From a virus, in IMG/VR virus record IMGVR_UViG_3300008262_000008: a stretch of 64,000 nucleotides of DNA. One strand, written 5' to 3'. The notes beneath the pieces were generated by a model that was given only the letters and a program-made list of their open reading frames with translations, made no database searches and was not told where the DNA came from. Of the stretch, positions 5,922 to 37,806 are shown piece after piece (positions within the stretch are counted from its first letter, which is position 1; each line of letters begins with the position of its first letter). The position numbers and the translations under genes were made by a program.

Positions 5922-8237
5922 TTATACTTTGCAGCTGTCACAATCATCTTCAACTAATACATCATTTAGTACACTATTAATAAAATCTTGTACTGATTGT
6001 TTGTCTTCTACTGGATCATCTGCGTCTTTTTTATTGTCGTAAGTATTATGATAATAAGAGGTCTTCCAACCGTACTTATATGTAGTTAATAGGTCTTGAG
6101 CCATTACTGAAGTAGGAACTTCATTATCTTCATAATGTTCTGGATTATAGGACCAGTTTCCAGAAATCGCTTGATCAAAGAACTTCTGCATAACTGCAAC
6201 AATATTAATATACCCACGATTGCTAGACATATCCCAAAGAAGCGTGTAATTGTTCTTAAGTGTTTGGTACTGGGGAACAATCTGCTTAAGCGGACCTTTC
6301 TTCGACTTCTTAACGGACAGATACCCTCTAGGAGGTTCAATTCCGTTTGTTGCATTTGACACAACGGAACTGCTCTCCGATGGCATTTGTGCGGACAGTG
6401 TTGAGTTCCTGAGACCGTGAGCCAGGATGGATGTTCTAAGACTTTCCCAATCATAGTTCAAATTATTAGGTACGATTTCGTCCACATCTTTCTTGTATGT
6501 ATCAATTGGAAGAATTCCATCAGCATACTTAGTACGATCAAAGTAACCACACTTACCTTTCTCAATAGCAAGTTGATTAGAAGACTTCAGTAGATAATAC
6601 TGGAATGCTTCTGTAAGATCATGAACTAATTCCCATGCTCTCGGATCATCATAGTGCTCACCATGACGAGCAAGATAATGTGCTAGACCGATATAACCAA
6701 TGCCAAGAGATCGACGGTTCTTTGTAGAATGCTCAGCGGCAGTTATAGGATATTGCTGATAATCGATCAATTCATCAAGACCCCGAACGGAAAGATCACA
6801 GAGTTCTTCTAGTTCATCAAGATTTTTAATTTTGCCAACATTAACTGCAGAGAGAATACAAAGGGCAATTTCACCTTCTGGATCATCAATATGATGTAGT
6901 GGTTTGGTGGGAAGGGTAATCTCTTGACAGAGGTTACTCATCCAAACTTTATCTTTGAAGGAAGAATGCTCATTGCAGTGGTCGATGTTCATAATGTAGA
7001 TACGACCAGTCTCTGCTCTCTCCTTTAAGAGTGAAAGAAATAGTTCTTGAGCACTGACAGTTTTTCTTGGAATAGAAGTATCTCGTTCATAAACATTGTA
7101 TAACTCGTCAAATCCAGCAAGACCAAAAGCATCAGACAGACCTGGAACGTCATGTGGACTGAAGAGAGAAATGTCTTCGTTTCGGATGAATCGTTCATAG
7201 AAGAGTTTGCTGATCTGGATGCTATAGTCTAACTTACGAACTCGGTTATCGTCGGTTCCTTTATTATTCTTTAATACTAGGATGTCCTCGATCTCTTGGT
7301 GCCAGATTGGGAAGTGGACAGTTGCTGATCCACCTCGGATGCCATTTTGAGTGCAGCATCTGACAGTTGCCTCAAACTTTTTGAGGAAAGGGATAACACC
7401 TGTGTGACTAACTTCTCCCCCTCGGATCTTGCTGTTGAGACCACGGATTCGACCTGCGTTGATACCGATACCCGCCCTTTGTGCAACGTATCTGCCAATA
7501 GCCATATCGCTAGTAAAGATACTATCGAGGGTGTCATCGCTGTCAACAAGCACACAGCTAGCAAATTGTCGAAGTGGAGTTCGCACTCCCGCCAAGATAG
7601 GTGTGGGTACGTTGATTTTGTGTTTGCTGATTGCGTCATAATATTTCCTTACATAGGAGAGACGTGTTTCTTTTGGATACTCTGCAAAGATTGTGGCAGA
7701 TGCCAACATATAAGCATATTGTGGCGTTTCAAATATTGTTCCGTTACTTCTATCCTGCACAAGGTATTTATCAACGACCTGACGTAGACCTGCATAAGTG
7801 AATAGGAAGTCACGATCATGATCAATAAAGGTATCAATCTTGTCCCACTCTTCCATAGAGTATTTACCGAGAAGTTCTCCATCATACACACGCAAAGAAA
7901 CACCTCCAACAAGATGGTCATGAACATTTGGAAACTCTACTTTCCAATTTGCCCCAAAGACATGCTTGCGTAGACCGAAAAGAAGGAGACGAGCAGCAAC
8001 AAACTGATAGTTTGGATTATCAAGAGAAATAAGATCGTTAGCTGATCGGACCAGGATCTCTTGGATTTGGGAAGTTTTAATGCCATCATAAAATTGAATG
8101 TTTGCGTTCATTTCTACTTGTGAAGCAGACACACCACTCAATCCATCACAAGCATGTTCAACCATAATATGAATTTTATCAATATTAAGACGCTCTACAG
8201 AACCGTCTCTCTTTACAACTTTGATGCCATTACTCAT
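5922..8237 (-). CDS. nrdA: Ribonucleotide reductase class Ia alpha subunit
   Basis: ATP cone VVKRDG, SNLCQEI, C-terminal CDSCKV; no intein-size insertion. Confidence 0.97.
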   Translation of the reverse strand: MSNGIKVVKRDGSVERLNIDKIHIMVEHACDGLSGVSASQVEMNANIQFYDGIKTSQIQEILVRSANDLISLDNPNYQFVAARLLLFGLRKHVFGANWKVEFPNVHDHLVGGVSLRVYDGELLGKYSMEEWDKIDTFIDHDRDFLFTYAGLRQVVDKYLVQDRSNGTIFETPQYAYMLASATIFAEYPKETRLSYVRKYYDAISKHKINVPTPILAGVRTPLRQFASCVLVDSDDTLDSIFTSDMAIGRYVAQRAGIGINAGRIRGLNSKIRGGEVSHTGVIPFLKKFEATVRCCTQNGIRGGSATVHFPIWHQEIEDILVLKNNKGTDDNRVRKLDYSIQISKLFYERFIRNEDISLFSPHDVPGLSDAFGLAGFDELYNVYERDTSIPRKTVSAQELFLSLLKERAETGRIYIMNIDHCNEHSSFKDKVWMSNLCQEITLPTKPLHHIDDPEGEIALCILSAVNVGKIKNLDELEELCDLSVRGLDELIDYQQYPITAAEHSTKNRRSLGIGYIGLAHYLARHGEHYDDPRAWELVHDLTEAFQYYLLKSSNQLAIEKGKCGYFDRTKYADGILPIDTYKKDVDEIVPNNLNYDWESLRTSILAHGLRNSTLSAQMPSESSSVVSNATNGIEPPRGYLSVKKSKKGPLKQIVPQYQTLKNNYTLLWDMSSNRGYINIVAVMQKFFDQAISGNWSYNPEHYEDNEVPTSVMAQDLLTTYKYGWKTSYYHNTYDNKKDADDPVEDKQSVQDFINSVLNDVLVEDDCDSCKV

Positions 8238-28677: not shown

Positions 28678-28853
28678 TGGACATTGAAGCACAAAACGAA
28701 AAATGGAACAGAGGTCTTGATCTGTTCATTGAAAGTGTATATAAGCCAGATAATGAATTAAGACAAGATGCACATGATCAAAAGTGTTATAATGAACTTA
28801 TGGGTATTCGTTGGCATGTTCTAGAGTATCTTCAAACATTAAGAAAGCATTAA
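28677..28853 (+). CDS. 58-aa hypothetical protein
   Basis: Translated manually; abuts the previous stop. Confidence 0.6.
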   Translation: MDIEAQNEKWNRGLDLFIESVYKPDNELRQDAHDQKCYNELMGIRWHVLEYLQTLRKH

Positions 28854-28879
28854 TTTGGTATCAAACTTTACAGTGATGC

Positions 28880-28908
28880 TTGAATAAATACAGATAACGG
28901 GGTATACT
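28880..28908 (+). promoter_or_regulatory. Overlapping sigma70-type and late promoters
   Basis: TTGAAT-17 nt-TATACT with AATAAATA at 28883-28890. Confidence 0.7.
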
Positions 28909-28929
28909 AATCCCCTATCGTTCATCCTA

Positions 28930-29151
28930 ATGTCTAAAGCACTTCTGCTTTTGGCATGGATACCCTTTCTGATCTTTCCCTATCATGCAGATCCAAGCAC
29001 TACTCAGTATGTTAAAGTGACTTGTGATCATGCATGGGTATTGATGGACATCGTTAAAAATAACGATACTATCTCATGGAAACAGAAAGATCCTTTGCTA
29101 TTAGACCTCCGAGAGGAAGTCATTAGTGAGTGTAATAGACACTATCAATAG
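28930..29151 (+). CDS. 73-aa protein inside the first riboswitch loop
   Basis: ATG follows the P2 5' strand and the TAG stop lies in the P2 3' strand; signal-like N-terminus; two Cys. Confidence 0.65.
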   Translation: MSKALLLLAWIPFLIFPYHADPSTTQYVKVTCDHAWVLMDIVKNNDTISWKQKDPLLLDLREEVISECNRHYQ

Positions 29152-29188
29152 GACGGAAGTAAGCCAACTCGGAACGGAACGTTCATCT

Positions 29189-29341
29189 ATGGAAGCACTC
29201 ATTCTAACTTGTCTTCAGGCACAATTGATTGCAGGAAGAGTTTATAAGCAAGATATTCCGAAACAAGCGAAGCTTGAATTAATTTCGGAATTGAAACTCA
29301 TCTCACCTAGAGAGTGCAAGATAGACGCAAAAGTTGACTGA
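29189..29341 (+). CDS. 50-aa protein inside the second riboswitch loop
   Basis: MEALILTCLQAQ...; similar Cys spacing to the previous ORF. Confidence 0.6.
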   Translation: MEALILTCLQAQLIAGRVYKQDIPKQAKLELISELKLISPRECKIDAKVD

Positions 29342-29379
29342 AGGAACGCTCTTTAGCCTAAAAATTAAGGAGAACCCTA

Positions 29380-29544
29380 ATGTCAATCGCAACATACCGT
29401 GGGTGCAAGTACAACACTAACACCCCTAAGCAAGAATATCAACACTGGTATTCTGAAACTCATGCCCCATCCCATCCACAGAATGTATATCGTGGTCATG
29501 CATATCGTCCATGCAACAACTGGAATTGGGAGGAAGGTAAATGA
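29380..29544 (+). CDS. DUF4278-like small protein
   Basis: MSIATYRGCKY and VYRGHAY (two YRG-x-x-Y motifs); AAGGAG SD. Confidence 0.7.
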   Translation: MSIATYRGCKYNTNTPKQEYQHWYSETHAPSHPQNVYRGHAYRPCNNWNWEEGK

Positions 29545-29627
29545 ATTGGTTAAATATTATCCGTAAACAAATTCTCAAAGAGAGAAAACTCCAAGAGGCA
29601 CAATATTATATTGCCACTCTTGGTTAA
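29541..29627 (+). CDS. 28-aa basic peptide
   Basis: ATGA overlap with the DUF4278-like ORF. Confidence 0.5.
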   Translation: MNWLNIIRKQILKERKLQEAQYYIATLG

Positions 29628-30514
29628 AATGATAATCTTGCTGAGAGTTTCTTAGCAATCTTTTTCGCAGGGGCAAACAGAGGTTTAAATCTCTTTTGCC
29701 CTTCTTTTGTAAATTTGTCAGAGATAATATCATCCACAATAATTTTATTCTCTACTTCGTAAAGTGGATTAATATCAACTTGGTCTCTGAGATACTGCTC
29801 TACATTATCAATCGTATCGAGGAGTTTAGTTCCTTCCGAAGAGTATTGGAAAACGTCAACCTTACCACTATCAGTTAGAACATAGTGCAGTACAGGTTTG
29901 ACTTGTTTGATTTTAATTTTAAACTTATTCTTTGCTGCTTCTCTAATCAACGGTTCTGCTGCGTTCTTAAGAGTATTAAAAACCATCGTTGATCCGATCG
30001 TGGCAGCAGTCGTAACGATTGCTACAGACCCCGCTGTAGCGATCATAGAGGGGTCTGGGAGGTCCACCTTGACCCCTGCGATGGTGATGCTAGGGTTCTC
30101 TGCTGGGATCTCTGCCTTGGTCACTGGAGGGGTCTGCTGGAGTGCCTGGATCTGTGGAGGCAGTTCTGGTTTAGCATCAGGTAACCCTCTGGTCTTATCC
30201 TGCTGTTGCTGTTGTTCTTTTTCTCTTTCTGCTTTTACGGCTGCATCAAATTCTTCCTGTGTAGGTACATTAATCACAGGATATTTGATTGAGGTATCTG
30301 GATTATCAAATACAGGTAAAGCAAGTCCCCGAGAAACAGGGACTTGCATCTGTTCTATTACAGGAGGATCAAGCCTCTGTATCAGCGTACCTTGAGGGTT
30401 CGGTATCCGCTGCTGCTGCAACGGGGGTATCGAAGACAGGTTGGACTGCTGGTTCGGCAGGGACTGGAGTTGGTTCGACTGCAGTGGTTGCAGGAACGGA
30501 ATCTGGTTTGGCAT
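29624..30514 (-). CDS. Pro/Gln-rich membrane-anchored hypothetical protein
   Basis: ORF track; central hydrophobic helix; start uncertain. Confidence 0.7.
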   Translation of the reverse strand: MPNQIPFLQPLQSNQLQSLPNQQSNLSSIPPLQQQRIPNPQGTLIQRLDPPVIEQMQVPVSRGLALPVFDNPDTSIKYPVINVPTQEEFDAAVKAEREKEQQQQQDKTRGLPDAKPELPPQIQALQQTPPVTKAEIPAENPSITIAGVKVDLPDPSMIATAGSVAIVTTAATIGSTMVFNTLKNAAEPLIREAAKNKFKIKIKQVKPVLHYVLTDSGKVDVFQYSSEGTKLLDTIDNVEQYLRDQVDINPLYEVENKIIVDDIISDKFTKEGQKRFKPLFAPAKKIAKKLSARLSF

Positions 30515-30748: not shown

Positions 30749-31174
30749 TCATGAAGAAATTTTCTTCTTACCAATATTATATTTAGATTCTAAAGTCCAC
30801 TCATCTTTATCTTTATAAGAGATAACTTTAATTTGATTTAATGGAGCAATATCTGAGATGGAACTTGCATTCACAATACTGATTAATCCCCAGTCACTCA
30901 AAAGTTGAGCAATTCTATTTCTACGTTGAAGATCATTCACAGATAAATTTGTGTTCTTGCCATCAAGAGAAAATAGTTCTTTAAAGTGAACAATATAATA
31001 CTTACCTTTCTTATGCAGAATATGGCAAGACTGATATAGTTTCTTTTCCTTCCTAGATGCGACACCAATTCTAGTCAGCGTCTCTCGAACCTTAAGAAAA
31101 TCATCGGGCTCATTAAGAGTGATTTCGACCATATCTGTCTCACTCCACTTTACTTCAGAATATTCTTCTGTCAT
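30749..31174 (-). CDS. regA: RegA translational repressor
   Basis: PDDFLKVRETLTRIGVAS...LYQSCHILHK.G.YYIVHFKELF. Confidence 0.96.
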   Translation of the reverse strand: MTEEYSEVKWSETDMVEITLNEPDDFLKVRETLTRIGVASRKEKKLYQSCHILHKKGKYYIVHFKELFSLDGKNTNLSVNDLQRRNRIAQLLSDWGLISIVNASSISDIAPLNQIKVISYKDKDEWTLESKYNIGKKKISS

Positions 31175-37733: not shown

Positions 37734-37806
37734 TGGAGAATAGCGGACTCGAACCGCTGACATCCTGCTTGCAAAGCAGGCGCTCTACCAACTGAGCTAA
37801 TTCCCC
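37734..37806 (-). tRNA. tRNA-Ala (TGC)
   Basis: GGGGAAT/ATTCTCC acceptor with G3-U70, loop TTTGCAA; upstream TTGACA-17-TATTCT. Confidence 0.95.

Follow-up and report, generated by a model that had tools for sequence, protein, structure and literature searches.

We analysed a 64,000-nt stretch of viral DNA (IMG/VR record IMGVR_UViG_3300008262_000008; hereafter the window) in which positions 28919-29349 of the plus strand hold the sequence words of a glutamine riboswitch, interrupted by two open reading frames (ORFs). The phage comes from lake water (freshwater) and, to judge from a wcaG RNA and tRNA genes in the window and from its nearest records, which are Kyanoviridae, is a T4-like cyanophage. 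The element is the leader of a small operon of ORF1, ORF2, an IF17-like ORF3, and ORF4. Every motif that a preliminary description of this DNA had listed for the region was found in the window; the coordinates it gave were correct in general, except that the 3' motifs really lie one base further on.

All parts of the element lie on the plus strand. It opens with CGUUC (28919-28923), strand a of the outer P1, which is invariant in all elements of this kind and has its partner d at 29344-29348. A single A (28924) stands between a and P2. In the outer core, the P2 strands UCCUA (28925-28929) and UAGGA (29149-29153) close a 219-nt loop filled by ORF1 (28930-29151, 73 codons), whose ATG at 28930 adjoins the 5' strand and whose TAG (29149-29151) lies within TAGGA. 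There follow the E-loop strand J23 (29154-29161; CGGAAGTA, in RNA CGGAAGUA), made up of C29154 and GGAAGTA (29155-29161) and in agreement with the Rfam RF01739 consensus CGGAAGUA, and strand x (29162-29169; AGCCAACT, in RNA AGCCAACU), the 5' strand of a shared long-range 8-bp helix, P3. The inner hairpin P1' consists of strand b (GGAACG, 29171-29176), a GAA loop (29177-29179) and strand c (CGUUC, 29180-29184), both strands being invariant. In the inner core, P2' (UCUAU, 29186-29190, with AUAGA, 29321-29325) closes a 130-nt loop around ORF2 (29189-29341, 50 codons), the AUG of which lies inside the P2' 5' strand and the TGA of which occupies 29339-29341. Strand J' (CGCAAA, 29326-29331) begins with CGCA, like the J-strand of glutamine-II riboswitches. 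The 3' strand of P3, y (29332-29339; AGTTGACT, in RNA AGUUGACU), leads into J31 (GAAG, 29340-29343), d (GAACG, the 3' strand of the outer P1) and the linchpin base C29349, a series that matches the Rfam consensus GAAGGAACGC.

The element and its relatives

The ordered motif set of the window recurs in at least 240 cyanophage contigs, at least 120 from each of two pattern scans of IMG/VR. Because of this recurrence and the end-to-end profile match of the loop-deleted core given below, we regard the motif set as more than chance. From the first scan we parsed 100 unique complete elements as a comparison set. Both hairpins are short in 26 of these, a gene occupies P2' only in 45, P2 only in 13, and both hairpins in 16, the type of the window; P2 is short (10-28 nt) in 71. 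The 26 compact, gene-free doublets formed alignment A1. Across the 100 elements J' reads CGCAAA in 97 and CGCAGA in 3, to be compared with CGCAGUUCGA in the Rfam RF01704 consensus. A scan of prokaryotes with one genome per species (185,579 species) returned only 7 contigs, all from metagenome-assembled or single-amplified genomes and probably phage DNA, and the layout therefore looks phage-borne.

The preliminary description had taken the element for a glnA-type riboswitch, and its relatives support this assignment. The same element with short hairpins scored 35.6 bits in DSL-LC02, 35.1 bits in P-SSM2 and 34.2 bits in DSL-LC03 against RF01739, the gathering score of which is 35 bits; homologous short-hairpin units in relatives ranged from 24.4 to 35.6 bits, and only two reach 35. 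In DSL-LC02 and DSL-LC03 it is unit 1, with its short P2 hairpin, that matches RF01739. Both hairpins are short in S-PM2 and S-CREM1, where the whole doublet spans about 95 nt, and the S-CREM1 doublet carries a glnA annotation (PMC9964418). The cultured relative P-SSM4 has both genes, S-PM2 neither. The window itself does not reach the RF01739 gathering threshold. We cut both window loops by script, keeping 4 nt in each, and searched the resulting 95-nt core with a sequence-only nhmmer profile of the 26 gene-free doublets. The core lay end to end on the profile (64.8 bits, E = 4.7e-22), a sequence-based form of the loop-deletion check suggested in the preliminary description; the intact window gave two partial matches only. 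The other computational checks suggested there, covariation in P3 and around the two genes and codon-level conservation, were likewise positive.

The glutamine-I core words (CGUUC, A, P2, CGGAAGUA, P3, GAAG, GAACG) are all present in this order across 28919-29348. Covariation was found for the glutamine-I helices, strongly in P2 and P2' and at three pairs in P3, and P1 is flanked by a covarying linchpin pair. The glutamine-II class fits less well: RF01704 (gathering score 33 bits) gave no match in the window and 16.8-26.4 bits for unit 1 in relatives, its pseudoknot (5' CGUUC with GGAACG in a 3' hairpin loop) was not found, and the linchpin test described below disfavours pairing of a with b. 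Taken together, 28919-29349 appears to be a riboswitch doublet of the glnA type (glutamine-I) that precedes an IF17-like (DUF4278-like) gene and would bind glutamine. A PsrR1-like Rfam match on the minus strand of the window (E = 3.9) was taken as chance.

Helices between the two units

Neither unit is complete, as the preliminary description had noted: GAAG is missing from unit 1 and GGAAGUA from unit 2. It proposed that one complete aptamer could fold across about 430 nt. A full consensus core does exist only across this distance, but the element is more than one aptamer with two incomplete halves. In the outer core the first CGUUC pairs with the final GAACG; GGAAGUA, from unit 1, lies opposite GAAG, from unit 2, and AGCCAACU:AGUUGACU makes up P3. 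The outer junction contains the full glutamine-I consensus: P2, P3, both E-loop strands (CGGAAGUA and GAAG) and a P1 (a:d) that encloses about 430 nt. At its far end the shared P3 seems to enter a second, inner three-way junction of the same strand polarity, formed by P1' (GGAACG-GAA-CGUUC), P2' and the CGCA-starting J'.

The complementarity of AGCCAACT and AGTTGACT is as originally claimed, 7 of 8 positions with one C.A mismatch, and x:y covaries across the units at three pairs. The pair x8:y1 is formed in all 100 elements with three Watson-Crick types (U-A in 75, A-U in 12, G-C in 12, and one U.G), including 26 of 26 in alignment A1. At x5:y4 we found G-C in 87, G.U in 8 and A-U in 3 elements, the window having A-U, and x1:y8 is A-U in 97, with C-G, G.U and an unpaired A.C once each. 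The linchpins follow the same scheme. Position 3 of J23 forms a pair with the base that follows d in 100 of 100 elements (C:G in 65, G:C in 35; G29156:C29349 in the window). Position 3 of J' does so with the base that follows b, a G that opens the loop, in 98 of 100. Both states of the outer linchpin occur among freshwater-type elements with similar genes, which points to more than one evolutionary event.

The order of the strands leads to the same pairing. At one end of P3, J23 enters x and y exits to GAAG-d; at the other, J' enters y and x exits to b. Both ends can therefore form three-way junctions of glutamine-I polarity only when d is the partner of a and c that of b. RNAalifold applied to A1 returned a:d and b:c. 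We rejected its alternative register of the middle helix, which uses the AGU of J23, because it ignores the covariation of x8:y1 and would consume the E-loop strand. The unconstrained minimum free energy (MFE) structure of the 436-nt window RNA (-119.8 kcal/mol) holds 27 of the 28 proposed pairs, among them all 5 of P2, and b:c reaches pair probabilities of 0.68-0.78 in the window fold.

The loop between b and c is 3-6 nt long in about 93% of loci; in 19 loci (L138, L153, L165, L237 and others) the linker measures 20-21 nt and contains a small hairpin of its own (ACCUA-CUUA-UAGGU). Linker length did not discriminate between nested and tandem models. Locus L082 carries, at about 6529-6900, the one triplet of units that was found; its units 2 and 3 pair via a shortened AGUCA:UGACU helix, and AGCCGACU of unit 1 is without obvious partner.

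Genes inside the hairpins

The preliminary description held both P2 loops to be real protein genes. Indeed, all long inserts (29/29 in P2 and 61/61 in P2', or 90/90) contain an intact ORF of 49-73 codons, and these ORFs are under purifying selection: the median ratio of nonsynonymous to synonymous substitution rates (dN/dS) is 0.29 for ORF1 and 0.20 for ORF2, and most differences fall at third codon positions. ORF1 encodes a small two-cysteine protein (C32, C68) with a hydrophobic N-terminus, and the 50 codons of ORF2 specify another (C8, C43) that matches phrog_504; two invariant cysteines and a hydrophobic N-terminus characterize both families. Alignment of the two families by hhalign was Cys-to-Cys (88.8%, E = 2.5e-6), and the ORF2 family model picks up ORF1 within the window (E = 0.005), so the families are paralogues. 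In AlphaFold (AF2) models a helix-turn-helix hairpin lies between the cysteines, with a predicted local distance difference test score of 85.5 for ORF2 and 68.5 for ORF1.

None of the 955 ORF1 relatives in the protein database is named, Pfam has no family for ORF1 or ORF2, and a Foldseek search of the PDB with the ORF2 model had no match with E under 3.9. In five complete cyanophage genomes both families occur solely inside riboswitch loops. The same held for 60/60 and 149/149 classifiable family matches in 1.87 Mb of fetched loci; 11 further matches that the script flagged as 'outside' concerned a variant J' or a contig end.

The reading frames are fitted closely to the stems. In 90 of 90 gene-bearing hairpins the AUG falls within the 5' stem strand or immediately follows it. 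ORF1 stops in the 3' strand of its stem, just 5' of that strand, or in the UAA of J23. The ORF2 frame runs through the P2' 3' strand, J' and y, giving a conserved ...DAK(A/V)D end (the last codons of the window gene read ID AKVD), and its stop, UGA (as in the window) or UAA, is formed by the last U of y together with J31.

The stems around the genes were also examined for covariation, and the closing pairs are kept with several pair types across both genes. In gene-bearing forms the P2 closing pairs 1-5 are present in 29, 29, 29, 26 and 29 of 29 elements, with covariation at positions 3-4, and those of P2' in 61, 61, 61, 61 and 60 of 61, where positions 3-5 show 3-4 types of pair. P2' has 362 paired cells, versus 287 +/- 9 in shuffles.

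The sequence of the genes themselves favours closure. In the other gene-bearing elements the predicted closure probability is 0.62 for P2 and 0.80 for P2', compared with 0.12 for both when the loop interior is shuffled, and native closure exceeds that of the interior shuffles in 25/27 (P2) and 59/59 (P2') cases. Shuffling of synonymous codons, which keeps protein and codon usage, gave closure of 0.30 for P2 and 0.39 for P2', the native sequence being higher in 23/28 and 59/60 cases. For the window the native values are 0.33 (P2) and 0.65 (P2'), against 0.00 for both in interior shuffles; synonymous shuffles of P2' gave 0.16. In these predictions the fold of the gene RNA leaves the five closing pairs able to form.

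Loci L128 and L013 share about 99% identity starting at J23 and have unrelated sequence before it; P2 holds ORF1 in one and a 13-nt hairpin in the other. With the identity boundary at J23, the conserved core seems to be a recombination joint, a breakpoint at which modules are shuffled. We rejected the notion that the stems are terminal inverted repeats of a mobile cassette, since the same stem positions occur in gene-free forms and no mobility gene was found.

The operon, a possible switch and related systems

ORF3 (29380-29544, plus strand, 54 codons) encodes an IF17-like peptide with two YRG motifs. These motifs are typical of Pfam DUF4278, to which the match is weak (E = 0.005; 17.6 bits, under the cut-off of 25.3); the match to phrog_5049 has E = 5.5e-10. 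Glutamine-I riboswitches stand before nitrogen-related genes, typically of the DUF4278/IF17 kind. An ORF of the ORF3 type (dN/dS 0.135) begins 29-37 nt after d in nearly all loci. This downstream gene, absent from the preliminary description, is the probable regulated target common to all relatives. Many of its homologues (L001, L013, L018, L120 and others) contain a glutamine-rich stretch, for example QQQQQAQQQPQQ, which the window ORF3 does not have. ORF4 (29541-29627, plus strand, 28 codons, MNWLNIIRKQ..., MNWLNIIRKQILKERKLQEAQ...) shares ATGA with the end of ORF3; DSL-LC02 and DSL-LC03 conserve it, and in S-CREM1 it is fused in frame to the ORF3 homologue. The terminator scan placed a terminator-like hairpin after it, at 29638-29658.

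Just upstream of the element, the preliminary description had seen a dual sigma70/late promoter. Both words are there, a sigma70-like promoter at 28880-28908 (plus strand; TTGAAT, 17-nt spacer, TATACT) and the late-promoter-like AATAAATA at 28883-28890 (plus strand) within the same region, but the sigma70 site scored 9/12 in the consensus scan, not above shuffles. Relatives have clearer TTGACT-N17-TATAAT sites in the same place. An inverted repeat sits astride the -10 box (GGGG at 28899-28902 and CCCC at 28912-28915 in the window). At the same place in other loci (L001-L128) it reads AGGAT..ATCCT, GGTCTA..TAGACC or TGTGTTA..TAACACA, so that its sequence varies and its complementarity is kept, and the 34 nt 5' of a have a mean folding energy of -6.1 kcal/mol versus -1.8 for shuffled sequences (92/98 loci). 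The repeat could be an operator or the 5' hairpin of a transcript begun further upstream, perhaps at the late promoter. In two studies, metatranscriptome contigs from lakes span 28907/8-29165 with 0-2 differences, DNA carry-over being possible; in both studies they begin at 28907/8, a weak indication as contigs cannot fix a transcript start, and none covers 28764-28895. Across many strains the conserved cores have very high summed depth in metatranscriptome contigs.

Other features of the window lie further away. A wcaG RNA (1854-1955, 81.1 bits) and a cluster of five tRNA genes (239-2122) are on the minus strand, as is one more tRNA gene (37734-37806). Slightly more than 1 kb past the operon, the opposite strand has a 141-aa ORF (30749-31174). 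S-CREM1 carries in the equivalent position, on the same strand, a 426-nt gene annotated 'translation repressor', the likeness being one of size, strand and place only.

Between riboswitch and ORF3, RNAalifold on 29 window-type leaders predicted a 7-bp hairpin (plus strand) of CUCUUUA (29349-29355) with UAAGGAG (29366-29372), the latter including the Shine-Dalgarno sequence. The hairpin starts with C29349, the same base that forms the linchpin pair with G29156, and ligand-bound closure would therefore loosen this anti-Shine-Dalgarno hairpin. This suggests an ON switch as in host IF17 leaders; glutamine riboswitches of the host switch IF17 genes on (Klahn et al., 2018, PMC6212724). Some marine elements (L031, L054, L040, L094, L111) have about 30 nt of extra conserved sequence (GGAACACGGAUC..AAAGGUGCAAAGUCC) between the riboswitch and the ORF3 Shine-Dalgarno sequence, which may be an added hairpin or platform.

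We consider it likely that the window element is a nested double glutamine riboswitch serving as a leader, with both P2 hairpins extended by paralogous two-cysteine genes and with folding set against translation. Nitrogen sensing and the translation of both nested genes would then probably compete on one RNA. With glutamine scarce, the weak long-range helices would open and ribosomes would start on ORF1 and ORF2, keeping both cores unfolded. With glutamine bound, P1, P2, P1' and P2' would close and bury the start codons of ORF1 and ORF2, and the linchpin G29156:C29349 would withdraw C29349 from the anti-Shine-Dalgarno hairpin, helping to release the ORF3 Shine-Dalgarno sequence. IF17-like proteins are believed to inhibit host glutamine synthetase. 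Much more tentatively, the fold of about 430 nt might act as a three-gene translational switch, in which glutamine at two interlocked cores hides the ORF1 and ORF2 starts and frees the ribosome-binding site of the IF17-like gene, the coding sequences having co-evolved, synonymous sites included, as hairpin extensions.

A number of observations weigh against the nested fold or the proposed switch. Rfam gave no glutamine riboswitch match in the window even at E <= 10, which we attribute to the two large inserts in the hairpins. The strands of P1 and P1' never vary and so offer no covariation to choose between a:d and a:b; the choice leans on the linchpins and on topology, and independent linchpin changes are still few. 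P3 always has its C.A mismatch and usually a second one. Closure probabilities in the window are moderate (P2 0.33, P3 about 0.2-0.3), and under synonymous shuffling that of P2 drops only to 0.23. The 95-nt loop-deleted core alone does not have the nested fold as its RNAfold MFE structure. The inner core is without an E-loop and may bind no ligand. The anti-Shine-Dalgarno pairing, finally, is invariant in sequence, hence without covariation, and is missing from the marine group.

A simpler account would keep the nested riboswitch and let it control ORF3 only, with the ORFs as passengers in insertion-tolerant loops, moved by recombination at the core and without meaningful regulation by glutamine. 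All four combinations of short and gene-bearing hairpins exist, L128 and L013 point to module swapping at the core, and the compact forms show a switch that has no need of genes. However, every gene-bearing hairpin has its start codon within the stem or adjoining it, both families are found in loops only, the closing pairs covary, and the gene RNA, including its synonymous sites, favours closure. These four observations argue that the genes have at least been shaped by the switch, and we judge a pure passenger role unlikely.

Far less probable is an ordinary tandem of two independent aptamers, with P1 formed by a:b and c:d and tiny local P3 hairpins, acting pseudo-cooperatively as published doublet lists assume. 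The current Rfam model does align the units separately (24-36 bits), and 157 glutamine doublets appear as tandem in a published survey (PMC9481103). Yet neither unit is a complete aptamer with its own P1, since each is without one E-loop strand. The local mini-hairpins implied by the Rfam alignment are broken in 14 of the 26 compact elements, while x:y covaries across the units. Under the tandem scheme the linchpin pairs fit in 65 of 100 elements only, compared with 100 and 98 in the nested one, and on topological grounds a:b and c:d cannot close compact junctions once x:y has formed.

That the riboswitch is dead in gene-bearing forms, its words being kept as protein ends (DAKVD) or as recombination or promoter signals, would suit the position of J', y and J31 in the ORF2 reading frame and the failure of Rfam to detect the window element, but is hardly credible: the non-coding parts of the core (a, J23, x, b, c) show the same conservation as in compact forms, the stems around the genes covary, and gene-bearing forms also compensate their changes in the linchpins and P3 (A-U at x5:y4 in the window).

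The nested double riboswitch that we favour shares with known glutamine-I RNAs (the glnA motif, RF01739; the Synechocystis gifB/IF17 leader, PMC6212724; S-CREM1, PMC9964418) the core CGUUC-A-P2-CGGAAGUA-P3-GAAG-GAACG, the long-range linchpin, and perhaps the kind of downstream gene (DUF4278/IF17-like, by a match below the cut-off). It differs in that P1 closes about 430 nt rather than about 55, in that P3 is a long-range helix bearing a second junction rather than a hairpin, and in that both P2 loops are whole genes; the Rfam model does not detect it in this window. Tandem glutamine riboswitches have been listed as pseudo-cooperative, with 157 doublets and 4 triplets (Sherlock et al., 2022, PMC9481103). 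These arrays (see also Weinberg et al., 2010, PMC2864571) likewise place two adjacent glnA-like units before one gene, whereas covariation indicates that units of the window type are interdependent, interlocked through the shared P3. Glutamine-II RNAs (Downstream-peptide motif, RF01704; Huang et al., 2019, PMC6698751) resemble the inner core in a J that starts with CGCA and in a C:G linchpin to the base after GGAACG, but the window element lacks their pseudoknot topology. The presence of glnA RNAs in cyanophages, tandem glutamine riboswitches and the link to IF17 have been published (PMC2864571, PMC9481103, PMC6212724, PMC9964418); in the literature we covered, to which Ames & Breaker 2011 does not belong, we found no account of the nested fold or of genes inside riboswitch hairpins.

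Riboswitch aptamers are regarded as compact domains of 50-150 nt that do not code for protein. In the window, an aptamer of a validated class seems to span about 430 nt between its closing strands and to hold two functional genes in its hairpins, and the gene sequences appear to be constrained to let the sensor fold. If this is true, standard covariance-model scans would systematically miss such elements, as happened with the window, and the 'tandem' glutamine riboswitches of cyanophages would be interlocked rather than independent. Phages could then tie the translation of several genes to the nitrogen status of the host through one RNA fold, and the element would offer a natural system for studying the competition between ribosomes and ligand-dependent RNA folding.

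Two systems outside the glutamine riboswitches invite comparison. In the Mg2+-sensing mgtA leader of Salmonella, the leader ORF mgtL is translated in competition with alternative RNA pairings. Leader ORFs such as mgtL encode short regulatory peptides of about 17 codons, whereas those of the window are conserved genes of 50 and 73 codons under purifying selection and lie in the hairpin loops of the aptamer. In the td intron of phage T4, the ORF of the homing endonuclease I-TevI occupies a peripheral loop of a group I intron, a ribozyme. The window RNA is a putative metabolite sensor instead, and its genes show no mobility function; in both cases, a whole gene is looped out of a structured-RNA hairpin in a T4-like phage, and translation and folding have to be reconciled.

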